Virus record (IMG/VR): IMGVR_UViG_3300043220_000071
Span: 1 to 45,355 of that record
Length of the DNA stretch: 45,355 bases
DNA from: a virus
Lineage: Duplodnaviria > Caudoviricetes
Reading direction: 5' to 3' (one strand)
Shown here: one piece after another, positions 11,810-31,418 of the stretch
Numbering within the stretch: the first letter of the stretch is position 1
How the letters are laid out: each line of letters opens with the position of its first letter
Notes under the pieces: model-generated
Databases searched by the model: none
Seen by the model: only the letters and a program-made list of their open reading frames with translations
Told to the model about the DNA's origin: nothing
Position numbers and translations under genes: made by a program

Positions 11810-13622
11810 CGCCCAACTCGGGCGGGACGTCGCCCTGGAAGCGAGCTAAGAGCGCCTGCTGAGCTTGCTGGGGTAGGTCGGCGAAGCCTTGAGCGATGGC
11901 CGCTATCTCCTCCGGCGACAGCTCTCCGGCGGCAACCTGGGCCTGCCGCTTCAGGGTATCGATGTACTGGTCAACCAGAGCGTTCACAACTAACTGCTCG
12001 TTCACGCTATCGACCATCTCCATTGGGTTTTCGATGTCCAGTTCTCCTTGAAGGACGGCGACGTCCGAGAGTAGAGGTCGTTGTCCCGGCCCGCGAGCTT
12101 CCGTGAGTAATCGGGCGTTGGTCACCGCCGCGCCACGGTTCACGGGTAGAGCTAGTTTAATTACCCCCTGAAGCAGGAGGTCGTATTTCTCCGCGTCCTC
12201 TCTGGTGAGCGAAATCTCCCTGGAGCCGTGTTTGCTGTCGGCCTCTCTCACGGTTACTTTGTCGTCTTCCGGCAATGCCCTAAGGTGCAATTTACAGATG
12301 TTGGCGAAGCCGTCCTCTAAATTGGAGTGGGGCACGGAGAGTTCAGTGATCTGGGCCTGGCGGGCGGTATCCAAGTGAACGGCGGACTGCCCCGCTGGCC
12401 CTTGGCCAATGGTTTCAGGTCTGTGCGCCCCTGACCTATCGAGGTACTGCGCCCCGAAGGCGACCAGTTGGAATAGATTGGGATTCACCGTCGCGGTAGG
12501 GAACCTCCCCAACTCCTCTTGACCTTCCTCACCACCGTAGAGGACGACGTTCTCGTTGGCTCGGATGTCTATGGTTTTCTCCTCGATGCCTAACGCTGTC
12601 CGTAGTCTTGGGAACAACCTCGCCCAGAGCGGGGATTCTACCTCTTTGCGGGTGACGGTCCTTAAGTCAGTAATGGACTCATCGAGCATCTGCACCATTT
12701 CCCTGCCGTGGTAAGACGCCCCTCTGCGGGTGTGGCCTCTGTCGTTCTGTCTCATGGGATCGAAGCGGATGAACGTGTACGGCAGCATCCCCAATCCGTG
12801 CTCCCACGGTTCTTTCAAGAACATCGCGTCCCGCTTGAAGACCTTACCCTTCCCCTGTCTCAGAATGGACGCAACGTACTTGTGGTTCGCGTACTCGATG
12901 ACTTCCAGCTCGGTGTCTTTTTTGAGGTCGTCGGGCAGGTCTATGGCCCCGAAGCGGGTTTCGATGATGTCTTTCGTTATCTTCCTAACCTCGAACACTT
13001 CCGCGATGCCGCGTTCGTCCCACTCCCTATACGTCGAAACCGGGTCAACGTACCGCCACACAATAGGCCAGTTATTATCCTTAGCCCTTTGAAGTTTCGC
13101 TTTTTGCTTCTTGATCTCCTCTTCGGGAGCGCCCTCGGAAACCAGGGAATTTAACTTGTCAACCTCTTCCGCCACTTCGTCATCGGCCCAAAATTGAGGA
13201 GCGGGGAGGACTTTGGAGACGAACTCCCCGATTAAATTCTGGTCTAAGAGTCCGGTATCCCAGACGGGGAAATCCCCCTGGGAAAGCCACACGGCGATAT
13301 TCAGCCAGGGCTCAATTTTCCCTGATACATGTCTCTCCGCTTCTTGTCCTCCGACAGCGTTGACCCTCGCGGAAGGTCGGGGTCTTAGAACGTGGACGTT
13401 GCGGTCAATCTGGGTGCCGACGATCCCCATCCCCACGCCCCTGACCGTGTTCCTGTCTCCGCGCTGATCCTTTTTGTCCCCTGGATCGTAGGCGTTGATA
13501 ACGTGGTCTTGGTGGTATTGGGAGACCATCTGCTGATCGAGTTTCTGCTGAGAGCCGGACGAGGCTTCTTTCTCCCTGGCACGTTCATCGACCTTTTTAG
13601 GGTCGGGGAGGTCTTTTCTCAC
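11721..13622 (-). CDS. Portal protein (putative)
   Basis: 633 aa directly downstream of TerL with GTGA overlap; WEHGLGMLPY motif; Gln/Ala-rich C-terminus as in podoviral portals. Confidence 0.8.
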   Translation of the reverse strand: MRKDLPDPKKVDERAREKEASSGSQQKLDQQMVSQYHQDHVINAYDPGDKKDQRGDRNTVRGVGMGIVGTQIDRNVHVLRPRPSARVNAVGGQEAERHVSGKIEPWLNIAVWLSQGDFPVWDTGLLDQNLIGEFVSKVLPAPQFWADDEVAEEVDKLNSLVSEGAPEEEIKKQKAKLQRAKDNNWPIVWRYVDPVSTYREWDERGIAEVFEVRKITKDIIETRFGAIDLPDDLKKDTELEVIEYANHKYVASILRQGKGKVFKRDAMFLKEPWEHGLGMLPYTFIRFDPMRQNDRGHTRRGASYHGREMVQMLDESITDLRTVTRKEVESPLWARLFPRLRTALGIEEKTIDIRANENVVLYGGEEGQEELGRFPTATVNPNLFQLVAFGAQYLDRSGAHRPETIGQGPAGQSAVHLDTARQAQITELSVPHSNLEDGFANICKLHLRALPEDDKVTVREADSKHGSREISLTREDAEKYDLLLQGVIKLALPVNRGAAVTNARLLTEARGPGQRPLLSDVAVLQGELDIENPMEMVDSVNEQLVVNALVDQYIDTLKRQAQVAAGELSPEEIAAIAQGFADLPQQAQQALLARFQGDVPPELGGGGQLARTAANTARATRGQQESQLAGISE

Positions 13623-15802
13623 GCCAGGACTCCGTGTTCCACTAGCTTCGGCGGCTTAAACCCAATCGGCATGGCTTCTATCTCTTGGAGGGCATCTGCC
13701 GCCGCATCCCACGCATGATCTGGGGTGTTAACGTCAAACTTGTCCGTCTCCAATTCGCGGCCTCTTCTTTTAGCCCAGGACAGCCCTGAGGCTTCGCGGA
13801 TGAGGAACTGGGACTCGTTACAGATGGTCAACATTCCTTGACTCAACGGTGTTATCCACGACTTCACTCTCAATTCAATCCGGTTGGAGCGGGCCTTGAT
13901 TGCGGGGATGCCTTTTTCCTGCATCCACCGAATTCTGTCTTTCCCAGAGGGGTCGCAGACGAACAGAGTGATCCCGTCGTCCATCGCGTCCCGGCACGCC
14001 TTAACGAACGTTTCGTCGTTACAGTCTCGTTTGTACAGCCACTCCCGTAAATATCTATGACCCGTCTTTGTGACGGCGCACTCCACAATCGCCGTGGCAC
14101 TCTGAACGCCGAAGTCCACCCCCGCTATTTTTCTGATGAACAGTTCGTCCGGCCAGGGGGCGATATGCTTGTCAGGGTCGAAGTTGGGCAGGACCAACCC
14201 CTCCATTTGGACGAACTCCCCCAGAACGTACTGGCGGTACATCGGAGTCCCTTCGATGTAGGTCTGGGTCATCCTCTCGATATACCCATCGGGGAGATTT
14301 GCTTTGTTCTCAAAAGTAGAGCCAGGGAACAGAACATGCCCGGTTTCTTTCGCCGTGGGATTATCGACCCACTCCCGCCACAGCCAGTTCCTCCCTGAGG
14401 GGGTGGTGGCGACGCCCAGCCAGTGCCTAAACCCTTTTTGCCTCAGACGGCCCACCAGATTCAGGTAAGCCTGCTCCTGGGAGCCGTGCTCGGTGGAGCC
14501 GGCCTCGTTCATCAGCGCCCACGCCACCTCGAACCCCACTAGCCTCTCAGGCGTCTCAGCGGCCTTGAGCATCCATAGACAGCCGTTTGCGAACTCAATC
14601 CGGTGGTTGGGACCACCTTTGCCCTGCTCAGTCCAGAAAGACCCCTCGTACTCGCCGAAGAAGCCCCTGAGTGTCGGCAAACACGACTCGGCGAACATCG
14701 CCGCCACGGGCTCCGTCCAGACTCCCCTGGAGCCGGGGTTTTCTATCGTGTACATCCAGCACTTGATGACCCCCCCCGCTGTTTTGCCTGAGTTGTGGTG
14801 CCAAAGGCCATTGGCTGAGTAGTGGTGAAGATGGGGAACCGTTAGATCGTAGTAATCGCCATAGCGGTCGAATGTCACCCGCACTATAGAGTCCCAGAAT
14901 GTGCTATAATGAACACATGGGAAAGGGAATGGGTCCTGGATCGCAGAAGACACAATTTCAGCGGCGGCTCGATTATGCTCAGGTGTTAAAGCTGTATCGG
15001 GAACTTGGAACGCAGCGTCGGGTAGCCGAGAGGCTGGGCTCGAATCAAGGGACGATCTCAGGAATACTCCGTTCTCAAGGTGTACGCGTGGGTGTCGGCC
15101 CCGTGACAAAATACGATCTACCGATGGACGAGATCGCGTCCCGTTATCTAGCGGGCGAGACCTGCCGAGAGATTGCGAAAGACTACGGCGTTGACGATGA
15201 GCGCATTCGCCGCCGCTTGAAATCGAAAGGTGTAACGAGGCGGAATGGCGGAGGGCCAAAGGGGAGCAAGAACTTTTTCTGGAAGGGGGGTTTTCAGCCC
15301 ACGATGCACTACTATCGGCGACAATCATACGAGGTAGCGGCAATCTGTTTAGGATACCCGCTGCCCCAAGGAATGATAATCCATCACTTGGACGAGAACC
15401 CGAGGAATAACAATCCCGACAACCTCTGCCTATTTGAGAATCAAGGAGACCATGCCCGCTTCCATCTGCGGCTACACAATCTCCAGCGGACAGGTCAGAA
15501 AGTTGACGCCATCCAGACGGCGTTAGAAAACGGTGGCCGAGAGTTACCACCACCTCCCGCCCCGATTTCGTTACCACTCGGTACAAGTCGGCGCGACCCT
15601 TCAAGAAAGAGGCGGTCGCAGGGGATGAGCCCAACAGCGTCCTGACATCCCCGCGTTCTCTGTCTGCAACTGGCATTCCTGAAACAAGAGTCTCCGCAGC
15701 TACGCATCCCTGACCCCCCATGAACGCCGGGAACGCGGCCTCGGAGCGGACAAACCCGTCCTGTGCGCCCTTGTTCAGGGCGACCTCTACTTCAGTCGTC
15801 AT
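13619..15802 (-). CDS. terL: Terminase large subunit precursor containing an intein (predicted spliced product 422 aa)
   Basis: Walker A GGQG|SGKT split by the intein; Walker B-like ALMNEAG; ATTPSGRNW coupling motif; GVDFG and DHAWDA RNase H-like nuclease motifs. Confidence 0.95.
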   Translation of the reverse strand: MTTEVEVALNKGAQDGFVRSEAAFPAFMGGQGCVAAETLVSGMPVADRERGDVRTLLGSSPATASFLKGRADLYRVVTKSGREVVVTLGHRFLTPSGWRQLSDLSAGDCVAADGSGHGLLDSQIGRGCRDCYSSGSRPSDGLSFLGAAGILNRLPLPRMIVADSSASWAENPPSRKSSCSPLALRHSASLHLSISSGGECAHRQRRSLSQSLGRSRPLDNGTRSRPSVDRILSRGRHPRVHLENGVFLRSSLDSSPASRLPDAAFQVPDTALTPEHNRAAAEIVSSAIQDPFPFPCVHYSTFWDSIVRVTFDRYGDYYDLTVPHLHHYSANGLWHHNSGKTAGGVIKCWMYTIENPGSRGVWTEPVAAMFAESCLPTLRGFFGEYEGSFWTEQGKGGPNHRIEFANGCLWMLKAAETPERLVGFEVAWALMNEAGSTEHGSQEQAYLNLVGRLRQKGFRHWLGVATTPSGRNWLWREWVDNPTAKETGHVLFPGSTFENKANLPDGYIERMTQTYIEGTPMYRQYVLGEFVQMEGLVLPNFDPDKHIAPWPDELFIRKIAGVDFGVQSATAIVECAVTKTGHRYLREWLYKRDCNDETFVKACRDAMDDGITLFVCDPSGKDRIRWMQEKGIPAIKARSNRIELRVKSWITPLSQGMLTICNESQFLIREASGLSWAKRRGRELETDKFDVNTPDHAWDAAADALQEIEAMPIGFKPPKLVEHGVLA
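14900..14910 (+). promoter_or_regulatory. Extended -10 promoter (TGTGCTATAAT) inside the intein, for the antisense HNH
   Basis: Consensus TGn-TATAAT ending 6 nt before ATG 14917 (leaderless spacing). Confidence 0.75.
14917..15645 (+). CDS. HTH-HTH-HNH homing endonuclease encoded antisense within the intein
   Basis: Two helix-turn-helix units (TQRRVAERLGSNQGTISGIL; TCREIAKDYGVDDERIRRRL), GSKNFFWKGG motif, HNH core IIHHLDENPRNNNPDNLCLFENQGDHARFH. Confidence 0.9.
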   Translation: MGKGMGPGSQKTQFQRRLDYAQVLKLYRELGTQRRVAERLGSNQGTISGILRSQGVRVGVGPVTKYDLPMDEIASRYLAGETCREIAKDYGVDDERIRRRLKSKGVTRRNGGGPKGSKNFFWKGGFQPTMHYYRRQSYEVAAICLGYPLPQGMIIHHLDENPRNNNPDNLCLFENQGDHARFHLRLHNLQRTGQKVDAIQTALENGGRELPPPPAPISLPLGTSRRDPSRKRRSQGMSPTAS

Positions 15803-16068
15803 TTCGTGATGGGCTCCCCATACTGCTTACGCACATCCAAGCCGCGATTCCACATCTCCCGCGCCACCACCTTCATCAAGGCGGCGCTGATTACCACCGC
15901 CTCATCCACCGTCATGTGTATATCGTTGAAGTCGTGCAGGGAACGCATCTCAAGACGGATGATGTCCGCTTTGCAGTCCCACTTCGGGTTGTGGACGCGC
16001 CCAGCGCGGATGTACGTCCCGCCCGCTGCTAGCGCGCTAAACTCCCAGTTAGTTCTCTGTCTCTTCAT
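15799..16068 (-). CDS. Hypothetical protein
   Basis: 89 aa, ATGA overlap with terL. Confidence 0.7.
   Translation of the reverse strand: MKRQRTNWEFSALAAGGTYIRAGRVHNPKWDCKADIIRLEMRSLHDFNDIHMTVDEAVVISAALMKVVAREMWNRGLDVRKQYGEPITK
15800..15812 (-). promoter_or_regulatory. 13-bp motif CCATCACGAAATG, copy 2 (its ATG is the terL start codon)
   Basis: Exact copy lying between the GGGGAG SD and the terL ATG. Confidence 0.7.
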
Positions 16069-16213
16069 CTAGCCAGCCGCTCTCCCACCCCTGTAGGGCC
16101 ATCAACGCACTCTTCAGGCTATGTACACACTCACGAAACCGAGCATGCCAACGTAACTTTCCAACCCATATCCGCTTCATCCCCTGCTCCTTTCCCTGTA
16201 GTACAATCTAGGC

Positions 16214-16399
16214 ATGATTCCACCTCATCACGGCAGGTCTCAAGCCATGCGGCACATGCTCATGGTTTACTGGCGGCGGTGGGAAAACGGCTACCGAGGG
16301 AAGATGCCCTATGTTGTCGGCCCAGGCTGGCGACCCCCTGGAGGAGCCCCCATCCCGCGTGAGCCAAGATTTAAGGCTTACGTTTTCCGCTCTCTGTAG
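16214..16399 (+). CDS. Small antisense hypothetical protein, probably leaderless
   Basis: TACAAT at 16202-16207, 6 nt before the ATG; 61 aa. Confidence 0.45.
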   Translation: MIPPHHGRSQAMRHMLMVYWRRWENGYRGKMPYVVGPGWRPPGGAPIPREPRFKAYVFRSL

Positions 16400-22873: not shown

Positions 22874-23644
22874 CTACAGCTTTGCCTTAACGGCCTTGAC
22901 GGCCTGGGCATCGGTATACGAACCGCCGCTAAGCTGGAGGGCATCTACCTTGCCCTGTAGCGCTAGGTGGGCCAGCACCTGGACCTCGCCGTGCTGGTTC
23001 TGGCGTGTTTCCAGGAAACGAACGTGCTTACTGAGAGCTCCTTCGGGGTCGAGGTTCTTAGCCTCCATCTTGGCTACGACCTTATCAGCTATGGCCTCTA
23101 TCTCTTCTGGTGTTAACGCCATGTCGTCCTCCCATTCGTTGATTAGCGCGAACTTCGCGTTCCAGGGGTTACGCCCCGAAGGGCAGCTAGTGGCCGAGAG
23201 CCAGTTGTGCTCCCACATGTTCTTTCTGAGAGTCGGGGGGTTGGCCCCGAACGCCGGGCACAGCGCACGCAGGGCGACGTCTATCTTGGCGCTCCAGTAA
23301 ACCTGATTCTCCGTCCAGGGCTCGCCCGCTACCCCCTCATGCTCTTTGCCCACAAGGGTCAGGTTGCCTATCAGCGAGGTATCCTGCCGCCGGTCCCCTG
23401 GAAGGCCGGCGTGCCATGTTATTTTCTCCAGCGAGTAATGTTGAATGGGCTCGCTGTGCGTCGGGAGAGAGAACGTCCACGACGACTGCGCGGGGCCGTC
23501 CAGCACGGAGTAGGCACCAGCCATCGAGCCCTCCATGCTGTGGTCTACCACGCCCTCTATCTGCGCCAGGGTCCGGTCGCCCGTGCCGTATCCCTGCTTC
23601 CAGTCGCGGCCAAGACGGCGGGCGCAGAAGCTCAGCCAGGTCAC
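22874..23644 (-). CDS. Endolysin, N-acetylmuramoyl-L-alanine amidase (Amidase_2-like)
   Basis: VVDHSMEG, TWHAG, GKEHEG and EHNWLSATSCP Zn-amidase motifs; adjacent to holin-like genes. Confidence 0.85.
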   Translation of the reverse strand: MTWLSFCARRLGRDWKQGYGTGDRTLAQIEGVVDHSMEGSMAGAYSVLDGPAQSSWTFSLPTHSEPIQHYSLEKITWHAGLPGDRRQDTSLIGNLTLVGKEHEGVAGEPWTENQVYWSAKIDVALRALCPAFGANPPTLRKNMWEHNWLSATSCPSGRNPWNAKFALINEWEDDMALTPEEIEAIADKVVAKMEAKNLDPEGALSKHVRFLETRQNQHGEVQVLAHLALQGKVDALQLSGGSYTDAQAVKAVKAKL

Positions 23645-29731: not shown

Positions 29732-30079
29732 TTATGGCCCTTCCATTCGGCGCGGGGTATTGCAACCTTGCAATTCGGGCATGGATACCCCCAGCGGCGC
29801 CGGCCCACGGTCCTCAGCCCCAGCCTCCACCTCGCGTATCTCACCAGCGGCGAGTTCGCCATCGGGACACCTACACTTCCCGTTCAGGTGATGTAGTACC
29901 GACGTGTGATTCACCAAGCCCAGGATGTCCGCTATCTCTGTAAGGGTGTAGTTCTCTGCACGCAGAGCCACCATATGCTCGTGCCTAAGCTGGACGTTTT
30001 CCTGCGCCCTGAAGGGTATGTATCGCAGTCGGCGAAACATCGTCGCGCAATCCGCGAGCGCTGCATCTAGCGCCTTCAT
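29732..30079 (-). CDS. DNA-binding protein with DnaA C-terminal-like HTH
   Basis: YTLTEIADILGLVNHTSVLHHL resembles the DnaA domain IV HTH. Confidence 0.7.
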   Translation of the reverse strand: MKALDAALADCATMFRRLRYIPFRAQENVQLRHEHMVALRAENYTLTEIADILGLVNHTSVLHHLNGKCRCPDGELAAGEIREVEAGAEDRGPAPLGVSMPELQGCNTPRRMEGP

Positions 30080-31137
30080 CCTTGCTCCTCCAGCCCTTCA
30101 AGGAACTGCCCGATCTCAGGCCACTCAGCGATGCCGAACTCCCTGGCCTTTTGCCACAATTCTTCCAGCGTCCACCGCTTCACCTTCGGCTTCGTCCCCT
30201 TGACTTGGCGACGGAATTCTGCCACCGACCACTGTTCCTCTTCGCACTTGTCCAGCCACATCTCCATGTCTTCGCGGTTCAGCCCCAACATCACGACATG
30301 GTGGGAGAAACGCAGCCCGGTGCGCCTCATGTTCTTCGGGACCGCCTCACAGACGTACATGATGTTGGCCATAGATTCGTGGACGTAGCCGAAGTCACAG
30401 ATGTACTGCTCCGCCTCTTCTCCTAGCTCGGCCCGCCAAGCGTTAGCAGTGTCGCCGGCGATCCATTGGCGGTTCCATTCGGTGTCATGGATTTGTTGGG
30501 CGATTGCTACGCGCTGTTCGTGGGTTAGAGGAGAAGAAGCGCTAGAATCACCAGCACTATCAGGAGCCACATGAAGCTCACCACCATCGCCGCCGCCAAC
30601 ATCTCTCGCTGGCCCCGTCTCAGCCCCAGCCGGTAAGCCCTCTGGGTTGCTGGCCGAACCTTGTCGTTCTTCATCGCTTTCCTCCTTGCTCAGTGATGGT
30701 GCCGAGGAACCACGGTGCGCAGCCGTGTTCGGCATAGGCCTCACTGCAAGTGCCGCCTCAGCACCATCACTCAACCGGCCAGCTTCCTCGCCCTCCTCTA
30801 CCCGCTGGCCAACGTTCGGGCTGCGCGTTGTGGCATCTGGCATCACCTCCTTTTGAACCAAGCACTTGTAGCGCTTGCTGACCTCAACAGGGACTTTAAT
30901 CCAGACGCCCTTAGCCTTACGCCACTCAAAGAATCCGTCCTTCACGCGGGTTTCTAGTACATGGCGGTGCTTGGCATCGTGGTGGCCCCTACAGAGCGGA
31001 CTCTTGTTCTCAGGTACGTCCCGTTCTTTTGACCCGCCCATCCCCTTCGCCTGAACATGGTCTATGTCGATGTCCTGGTCCGTGCCGCAGACCAGGCACA
31101 CGAGGTCTTGGCCCGTGGGTTGCTTAGCGACGGTCAC
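30076..31137 (-). CDS. HNH-like domain fused via a low-complexity linker to an LmbU-like DNA-binding domain
   Basis: N-terminal CLVCG..DIDHVQAKGMGG..N..PLCRGHH..KH; C-terminal QWIAGD..RRTGLRFSHH..WLDKC...WSVAEFR. Confidence 0.7.
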   Translation of the reverse strand: MTVAKQPTGQDLVCLVCGTDQDIDIDHVQAKGMGGSKERDVPENKSPLCRGHHDAKHRHVLETRVKDGFFEWRKAKGVWIKVPVEVSKRYKCLVQKEVMPDATTRSPNVGQRVEEGEEAGRLSDGAEAALAVRPMPNTAAHRGSSAPSLSKEESDEERQGSASNPEGLPAGAETGPARDVGGGDGGELHVAPDSAGDSSASSPLTHEQRVAIAQQIHDTEWNRQWIAGDTANAWRAELGEEAEQYICDFGYVHESMANIMYVCEAVPKNMRRTGLRFSHHVVMLGLNREDMEMWLDKCEEEQWSVAEFRRQVKGTKPKVKRWTLEELWQKAREFGIAEWPEIGQFLEGLEEQG

Positions 31138-31418
31138 GGCCCCTCCCCCGTTAAGACCCACTCAGCCCCGCGCTCATAGGCGGCTTGGGCTTCGGCGGGG
31201 TCGTCGGTGTTGACAACGCCTCTAAGATTCCCCGTCAACCAATTGCTGTGAGGATGGTCTTCGATACGTTCCAAGATTCGGCCAGATGTTGAAAGAAAGT
31301 CAGCTGGTTGGTTGCAGGAAAAGGTACATAGAGACTTCTGGTGCATGCTAGCTCGCCGCCCCTCAAACTCAGCGAAACCCACTAGGCACGGCGGCAGCCC
31401 CTCTCTAGGGTCACTCAC
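31134..31418 (-). CDS. Hypothetical protein
   Basis: 94 aa, GTGA-coupled. Confidence 0.6.
   Translation of the reverse strand: MSDPREGLPPCLVGFAEFEGRRASMHQKSLCTFSCNQPADFLSTSGRILERIEDHPHSNWLTGNLRGVVNTDDPAEAQAAYERGAEWVLTGEGP

Follow-up and report, generated by a model that had tools for sequence, protein, structure and literature searches.

Architecture of the terL locus

The sequence analysed here, referred to as the window, is the whole 45,355-nucleotide stretch of IMG/VR virus record IMGVR_UViG_3300043220_000071 (Caudoviricetes), a virus contig whose ends are direct terminal repeats. Its minus strand carries terL, the gene for the terminase large subunit, which is interrupted in the Walker A motif by an intein; an intact gene for an HNH protein lies on the plus strand, opposite the intein. 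The features of the locus are as follows.

15802-13619, minus: terL open reading frame (ORF), 727 amino acids in a single unbroken frame; terminase large subunit (PHROG 2, E 7.6e-24)
15707..15802, minus: terL N-extein, 32 amino acids, closing in the first half of Walker A (GGQG); intein-free relatives have an uninterrupted GGQGSGKT
15461..15706, minus: intein N-terminal splicing domain (PF14890, E 2.5e-10); C1 at 15704-15706, block B T55-x-x-H58 at 15544-15533
14912..15460, minus: intein insert; read in the terL frame, it corresponds to the HNH gene in antisense, runs for about 183 codons free of stops and is predicted to be disordered
14792..14911, minus: intein C-terminal splicing domain, with Asp287 (block F) and His304-Asn305 (block G)
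13619..14791, minus: terL C-extein, 390 amino acids, starting with Ser+1 (SGKT); PHROG 2, PF04466
14900..14916, plus: promoter-like signal for the HNH gene, extended -10 TG-C-TATAAT with the hexamer at 14905-14910, within intein codons H266-T269
14917..15465, plus: HNH gene body, with two helix-turn-helix (HTH) domains (approximately residues 20-53 and 70-103; HTH families), a conserved helix (131-145) and an HNH_3 core (PF13392, E 1.1e-9)
15466..15573, plus: overprinted tail under selection (residues 184-219), lying opposite intein residues 45-82 or thereabouts, block B included
15574..15645, plus: distal tail (residues 220-242) with the stop; a variable read-through in which the HNH frame shows little sign of selection

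The intein comprises 305 residues (15706-14792) and splits the Walker A loop of terL between GGQG and SGKT. All of the class-1 intein residues are present (C1, the block B motif TxxH at T55-H58, D287, H304-N305 and Ser+1), and Y286, D287, H304 and N305 are invariant across 19 intein loci. An AlphaFold model, for which 19 related inteins served as input, consists of two confident all-beta parts, residues 1-80 and 271-305, and a low-confidence middle. The pLDDT score (predicted local distance difference test) is 90-98 per block within residues 1-80, roughly 90 or above within residues 271-305, and below 50 across most of residues 86-265. When this model was submitted to Foldseek, solved inteins ranked on top, and among the matches listed at E≤0.001 all were inteins. 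On the strength of its Hint fold, motifs and insertion site, the insert in terL is identified as a class-1-type intein, and its splicing is predicted. Pfam and PHROG searches revealed no nuclease family in the terL frame of the intein, so that it is not a canonical intein with an in-frame nuclease. Neither is it a split intein or a fractured gene, as one 727-residue frame runs through both intein halves with no stop and restart between them. In the part of the insert that lies opposite the HNH core, identity within the family is 0.51 in the HNH frame vs 0.23 in the intein frame. No relative of the terL C-extein was found among the prokaryote genomes searched.

The HNH ORF (14917-15645) is intact and encodes 242 amino acids, with a TGA stop at 15643-15645. 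The residues of its HNH_3 core are H156-H157, N169, H179 and H183. An alignment of 69 HNH proteins was used here and below, made up of the query plus 68 more sequences after one fragment and the entry for the window itself had been excluded. H157, N169, H179 and H183 are invariant in all 69 of these proteins and in 52 of 52 further representatives. The likely start is the ATG at 14917. An ATG at 14899 was considered and rejected; the MCYN-like beginnings of many homologs represent a translated promoter motif.

Viral structure models named endonuclease or homing endonuclease match the HNH model at E<1e-4. Fold searches with the whole HNH model gave matches at the HTH level only, with no PDB match at E≤0.001, a result that is silent on the novelty of the tail fold. 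Locus searches of viral contigs with the single intein or the single HNH protein returned nothing, and searches of annotated phages returned just a weak partial HNH match and weak matches to the intein N-domain.

Openness of the antisense frame

An initial annotation of the window had described approximately 730 bp open on both strands, and it is apparent that this is correct: the terL frame is stop-free from 14700 to 15826 and the plus-strand frame from 14890 to 15642. The register is also as described there, HNH codon position 1 lying opposite terL position 1 and HNH position 2 opposite terL position 3. The codon junctions that would create a terL stop in this register (xTT-A, xCT-A and xTC-A) have zero occurrences in the HNH ORF. 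The end of the HNH core likewise meets the end of the intein N-domain, as had been proposed: H183 is encoded at 15463-15465 and the AADG that ends the N-domain at 15461, after which the HNH ORF continues for 59 codons.

The likelihood of such an open frame was assessed with two null models of 20,000 trials each, in which synonymous codons were either redrawn according to the codon usage of the window or permuted among the gene's own synonymous codons. The 182-codon insert had zero antisense stops in 27/20,000 redraws and 292/20,000 permutations, against which the original estimate of a chance of order 10^-3 is fair. For the whole 242-codon HNH ORF the corresponding values were 1/20,000 and 55/20,000. 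In the relevant register, stops occur at 4.7% per codon in 14 genes of the window (6,875 codons, with a longest open run of 133) and at 4.2% in 172 non-open HNH ORFs. It was ruled out that this register merely stays open more readily than the others, since it has the most stops of the three in the window genes (4.7% vs 2.2% and 2.4%).

A protein search with the HNH sequence gave 70 matches among 649 candidates. Loci were then retrieved with the alignment of 69 proteins and scored. All 22 distinct loci scoring at least 100 bits are stop-free in the same antisense register, and 0/22 are so in either other register. Among weaker loci (<100 bits), 6/178 are open in that register, and 5 of these 6 are inteins as well. 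The annotation's claim that selection holds the terL frame open is thus supported by 22/22 close loci vs 1/173 HNH ORFs outside inteins. It had also been asked there whether free-standing homologs are commonly open in the same antisense frame, and the latter count indicates that they are not; moreover, the low-scoring free-standing HNH loci lack the C-terminal tail, as had been expected of them. In a family-wide shuffle, 247 stops were expected over 54 loci and 48 of the 54 fell at ≤5%, a result that is partly circular because the parsing demanded an open intein frame.

A family of inteins with antisense HNH genes

The element belongs to a large family, which the initial annotation does not mention. 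A scan that used the intein block B motif alone yielded 62 loci, of which 61 were parsed and 51 are distinct. Of these 51, 40 have an antisense HNH gene in the same register, 4 are archaeal and carry an ordinary insert in frame, and 7 are mini or partly deleted forms. The 40 antisense-HNH loci, together with 14 earlier loci, were divided into group A, the 30 loci that bear the tail, and group B, their 24 sister loci. In 40 of these 54 loci the host site is a P-loop, ahead of SGKT or SGKS. The hosts are mainly terminases, but also include DnaB, SNF2-like and giant helicase-like proteins.

Several individual loci may be mentioned. The one unparsed block B locus (L295) has an intein frame that stops 213 codons past block B without a C-terminal motif, and represents a broken copy or an assembly error. 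Seven sister antisense-HNH inteins (L084, L162, L163, L251, L260, L301 and L305) occupy P-loops of helicase-like proteins that are very long, or a GDG-TGVGKG motif; their HNH tails differ and consist of basic helices. Mini or partly deleted forms are P0194, P0195, P0196, P0199, L248, L250, L254, L268 and L298. P0194 and P0199, the latter in DnaB, appear to retain only the shadow of the HNH core, and in L248 the deletion appears recent, to judge from the GTA retained at Val54 and a tail frame that is still open. A second design was also encountered, in which the intein lies just ahead of the terL Walker B motif and the antisense gene, in the same register, has the HNH core first and the HTH domains after it. 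Its loci are as follows.

L156: 2854-3729; the gene also carries a LAGLIDADG-type intein
L222: 2869-3543
L187: 2857-3816

Selection on the overlapping tail

The HNH tail had been described initially as overprinted through block B along its whole length. The codon and residue patterns across the family indicate that it is under selection over approximately 36 codons (184-219) and not over all 59; the last 23 or so appear to be free read-through, with scattered stops. At least 35 residues after H183 are kept in 69/69 aligned HNH proteins. The frequency of the top residue is 0.60 for HNH residues 184-220 and 0.30 beyond, where occupancy is 0.72, and the HNH stop positions past the selected tail scatter across intein residues 4-44. 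In the HNH model the last HNH helix extends to residue 191 and an additional helix occupies residues 198-204. The pLDDT is at least 90 to about residue 220 (90-97 per block at residues 181-220) and 64-68 in the distal tail.

Since the third codon position of the intein is the second position of the HNH codon, selection on the HNH protein should freeze synonymous sites of the intein. Third-base entropy in 19 intein loci is 1.23 bits at residues 49-82 vs 1.70 and 1.82 bits outside. Pairwise third-position identity in group A is 0.50 in the tail zone vs 0.40 and 0.37 outside, and in group B it is flat (0.37 vs 0.37 and 0.36). Third positions are therefore restricted only within the zone and only in the tail-bearing loci, with the sister loci providing the unselected reading.

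The codon for Val54, ahead of the block B Thr, is especially informative. In the HNH frame GTT and GTC give a stop, GTG gives Ser and GTA gives Leu; Leu210 of the window's protein (TTA, 15544-15546) is fixed by the intein codons Val54-Thr55. All 27 Val codons at this site in group A are GTA (GTG, 0/27), and the remaining three loci have GCA, which also yields Leu. In group B, GTA is found in 1 of 23 loci and GTG in 16. In the C-exteins of the group A loci themselves, 86 of the 601 codons for Val are GTA. L210 is invariant in 69/69 aligned proteins, although synonymous intein codons permit Ser, and the 52 further representatives have Leu in 41, Ile in 1 and Val in 1 at this position, with 9 unaligned. 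Intein residues 45-82 are free of HNH-frame stops in 30/30 group A loci, 4/24 group B loci, 0/4 canonical inteins and 2/7 mini forms. The HNH Asn faces intein residue 95 in 30/30 group A loci and residues 100-136 in the 23 measured loci of group B.

A quick tree of 131 columns, from which the four archaeal inteins were left out, places group A on one branch with a support of 94. Such a branch fits, and does not prove, a course in which read-through came first and recruitment followed; the tree is unrooted, and the order of events, read-through before selection, is suggested rather than fixed by it.

Promoter-like signal at the intein border

The TATAAT hexamer of the extended -10, which the initial annotation does not mention, lies six bases ahead of the ATG at 14917. 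From its sequence and position, this element would be expected to act as the promoter of the HNH gene, and the transcript is predicted to be leaderless. A match to TATAAT of at least 5/6 was found in the corresponding 25 bases in 17/30 group A and 10/24 group B loci; among the controls it was found in 0/4 canonical inteins, 2/7 mini forms and 0.7-1.0% of background windows. Where the hexamer matches in at least 4/6 positions, 19 of 44 loci have an in-frame start exactly 6 bases on. Many of the others have a start at 18-33 bases, several with a Shine-Dalgarno-like stretch.

Two other plus-strand genes of the window may be noted in this context. A free-standing HNH gene at 1289-1750 (153 amino acids, PHROG 374, E 2e-61), which abuts minus-strand genes, has the same design, with TG-C-TATACT seven bases ahead of its ATG. 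A 61-residue ORF at 16202-16399, just upstream of the terL region, has TACAAT six bases ahead of its ATG and no PHROG match; this arrangement may mark a further leaderless gene, one that faces the packaging genes.

Distribution of the intein

The 50 closest terminases are 46-89% identical to that of the window over the C-extein. Of these, 49 are of intein-free length (415-470 residues without an intein match), and in the five that were read GGQGSGKT is continuous. The insertion site is also empty in 5/5 related phage loci. Splicing domains that are 55-63% identical to the window's lie in exteins that are only 22-35% identical. Among sequencing runs, X1, possibly the source sample, contains one contig with an exact copy of the intein and others that are joined across the site. 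Runs X2 and X3 have coverage of the flanks and none of the intein. The run that matches best bears the label marine sediment metagenome. This patchy distribution fits the pattern expected of homing, as far as can be read from these sequences.

The sole intein carrier among the 50 terminases, P0098, has the closest intein (75% in the splicing domain), at the same site in a related terL (69%). Its insert resembles that of the window for about 50 residues and then differs, perhaps through a frameshift or through other DNA-binding domains.

Proposed mechanism and alternative explanations

The following course of events is proposed. The terL mRNA would be translated straight through the insert, the Hint halves would fold around a disordered loop of approximately 185 residues, and splicing would restore GGQG-SGKT. 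As terL is essential, any stop in its frame would be lethal, which accounts for the open antisense frame. Transcription of the HNH gene, by an RNA polymerase of the host type, would start from its own extended -10 at the edge of the insert and so would not depend on the terL transcript; the resulting mRNA would probably be leaderless. During co-infection the HTH-HTH-HNH protein would nick or cut intein-free terL near Walker A, and repair would copy the intein in. The tail probably began as read-through into the intein N-domain, as in the sister inteins, and became part of the nuclease fold in the tail-bearing clade. Synonymous positions of the intein are fixed so as to yield hydrophobic residues on the other strand; the fixation is observed, and its direction and structural role are proposed.

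A terL Walker A intein with a separate and intact antisense HNH gene, the latter acting as the likely homing nuclease, and with about 36 N-domain codons selected in both readings, is considered the best description of the locus, with a probability of about 0.82. Several points weigh against it. Openness of the tail in the window is by itself not significant: the 60-codon overlap was stop-free in 830/20,000 redraws and 7,186/20,000 permutations, and the 35-codon tail core in 4,256/20,000 and 9,998/20,000, so that the claim for the tail rests on the family data. The family loci are related and not phylogenetically independent, and the P values of 7e-5 and 3e-13 overstate the case. Group A was defined by a tail-containing profile, whose top-ranked matches are enriched for the tail; the tree was quick, and its 131 columns include the overlapped zone; and the model may owe part of its confidence in the tail to conservation that the intein imposes. 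In sequence the HNH protein resembles 1u3e, a homing endonuclease of the HNH type with a solved structure, only weakly (E 0.015), and no near-identical intein in a distant extein, which would point to recent homing, was found among the loci compared. With regard to the promoter, the 25-base region was picked after the motif had been noticed, the -35 position in the window has no TTGACA match, and a two-hexamer promoter scan of the window did not list the site at 14905-14910. Splicing of terL, transcription of the HNH gene from its own promoter, cutting of empty alleles and a place for the tail in the nuclease fold are, moreover, all deduced from sequence.

If the tail were a mere antisense shadow of the conserved N-domain, produced by harmless read-through after loss of a stop, then its chance-level openness in the window would be expected, as would the behaviour of the distal 23 codons, which do follow this pattern, and that of the sister inteins, where reading likewise continues into the N-domain, in most cases as far as residue 52-54. 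Third positions should then stay free, yet a restriction is seen in the tail-bearing group alone, and there only within the zone, and GTG would dodge the stop equally well, yet none of the 27 Val codons is GTG; this explanation is accordingly considered improbable for the proximal tail. It is more doubtful still that the fixed third positions reflect a nucleic acid signal at block B (an RNA structure, a terminator or a binding site) and not the HNH protein. Neighbouring third positions are indeed biased together (Leu61 CTA in 20/28, Thr62 ACG in 27/29). However, three loci have switched to GCA with Leu kept, the residues at position 210 of the 52 further proteins are nearly all Leu, with Ile and Val once each, among those that align, no terminator-like site was found at block B, and Rfam gave one match at chance level (E 0.6). 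That the insert is removed as an RNA intron, the open terL frame being incidental, is scarcely credible, as no intron family was found in Rfam, an intact Hint domain lies on either side, and the frame is open in all 22 close loci.

Other alternatives concern the function of the element. The initial annotation had raised the possibility that HNH transcription represses terL by antisense action, and the element might be kept mainly as such a regulator, with early plus-strand transcription holding terL down, by antisense pairing or polymerase collision, until late infection. Conservation of the promoter-like signal speaks for this, as does the complementarity that the two transcripts would have over 730 bases or more; in addition, no plus-strand terminator-like site was found between 15645 and 16400, so that a plus-strand transcript could cross the terL start. 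Yet 49 of the 50 closest terminases manage without the element, a regulatory role does not call for invariant catalytic residues, and the same design occurs in helicase-like and other hosts. A mainly regulatory function is therefore judged improbable; antisense interference with terL is possible as a side effect, but is not needed to explain anything seen. There is somewhat more to be said for an element that is immobile in this lineage and inherited vertically, its HNH gene an intact but idle relic, although this too is unlikely. Mini or partly deleted forms do exist in the family (P0194, P0195, P0196, P0199 and L248), and the nearest intein, in P0098, lies in a related terminase, which is compatible with shared descent. 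The window copy, on the other hand, keeps every invariant residue and a perfect hexamer, and exteins at 84-89% identity are empty, so that vertical descent would need many precise losses.

Comparison with known systems

HNH_3 phage homing endonucleases have an HH-x-D/N...N...H core with DNA-binding domains attached, as does the window protein. PDB entry 1u3e is taken here to be I-HmuI, a nicking enzyme and HNH_3 (PF13392) phage homing endonuclease. Unlike enzymes of the I-HmuI type, the window protein has tandem N-terminal HTH domains and a C-terminal tail.

Antisense nuclease genes within inteins have been described before. In the accessible part of their preprint, Gosselin, Arsenault and Gogarten (bioRxiv 10.1101/2025.01.02.630785) report actinobacteriophage inteins containing an HNH in frame, an anti-sense LAGLIDADG, an anti-sense VSR-like or a frame-3 endonuclease VII gene, the second ORFs typically lying outside the splicing domain. 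To judge from that part, those inteins resemble the present one in being contiguous, often in terL, and patchily distributed, with a nuclease ORF on the opposite strand and an in-frame insert that lacks a recognisable fold. The window locus has an intact nuclease ORF opposite the intein, between the splicing regions, with the host frame open. The antisense nuclease here is, however, HNH_3 with HTH domains, whereas theirs, as far as the accessible text goes, is LAGLIDADG or VSR-like and their HNH is in-frame. In addition, 59 HNH codons here overlap the N-domain, and 30/30 tail-bearing loci cover residues 45-82. Promoter analysis is not among the contents of the accessible part of the preprint.

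A cyanobacterial DnaX intein with an out-of-frame LAGLIDADG gene and frame-dependent selection is described in the accessible part of Phillips, DeSimone and Gogarten (bioRxiv 10.64898/2026.09.14.751524). As presented there, it shares with the window intein a disordered in-frame insert, selection on a second frame, empty and filled alleles in one population, and mini-intein derivatives. Its nuclease, in contrast, is LAGLIDADG, in a +2 ORF between the splicing domains (given as anti-sense by Gosselin et al.); in the text that is accessible HNH has 0 occurrences and no block B overlap is described. Phillips et al. and Gosselin et al. both cite work by Gorbalenya from 1998.

Fractured genes, in which a once free-standing endonuclease gene lies between intein halves, were described by Dassa et al. 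in 2009 (PMC2677866). In the portion of that paper available, the nuclease likewise has its own control signals and a short 3′ coding overlap, theirs of 6-69 bp, but all parts are on one strand, the intein is split, and the nucleases are GIY-YIG or Vsr-like. The window intein is contiguous, and its overlap is antisense and 177 bases long. The ShiLan insertion (Arsenault et al. 2025, PMC11855218), for which leaderless initiation was proposed, contains a hidden out-of-frame HNH. According to the available text, this HNH, too, is encoded in a second frame of a phage gene that remains open in its own frame; unlike at the window locus, there is no splicing domain, the HNH is read from the host transcript in another frame, and the host is a methylase.

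Full-text literature searches, covering few subscription journals and no preprint supplements, turned up no description of a contiguous intein with an antisense HNH or of a block B overlap. Inteins with antisense LAGLIDADG or VSR-like genes are thus already published, and what differs here is the antisense HNH, the clade-specific overprinted tail and the built-in promoter-like signal.

Implications and other genes of the window

It is about evenly balanced whether a broader interpretation applies, namely that this large and unpublished phage intein lineage records a protein segment born by antisense overprinting on a catalytic motif, its sister inteins still showing neutral read-through. The reverse of block B would now be required in the nuclease fold, with the nuclease promoter at the other intein border. 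The nuclease would thereby be inseparable from the splicing domain, and the element would time its own expression, possibly damping terL. If so, splitting the nuclease from the splicing domain would kill the nuclease. One intein group with a selected antisense reading and sisters without it would constitute a natural experiment on the origin of overlapping coding, and single synonymous changes in the intein (e.g. at Val54) would probe the nuclease with splicing untouched. The results also suggest that many phage inteins regarded as 'degenerate' may hide an intact opposite-strand nuclease, as 40 of the 51 distinct block B motif inteins did. A promoter of its own, encoded at the intein border, is a candidate answer to how such a hidden nuclease is expressed.

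Most structural genes in the window gave no Pfam or PHROG match. Elsewhere on the minus strand, an amidase-like ORF lies at 22874-23644, and a 361-residue ORF at 30076-31161 starts with the third HNH-like domain of the window.

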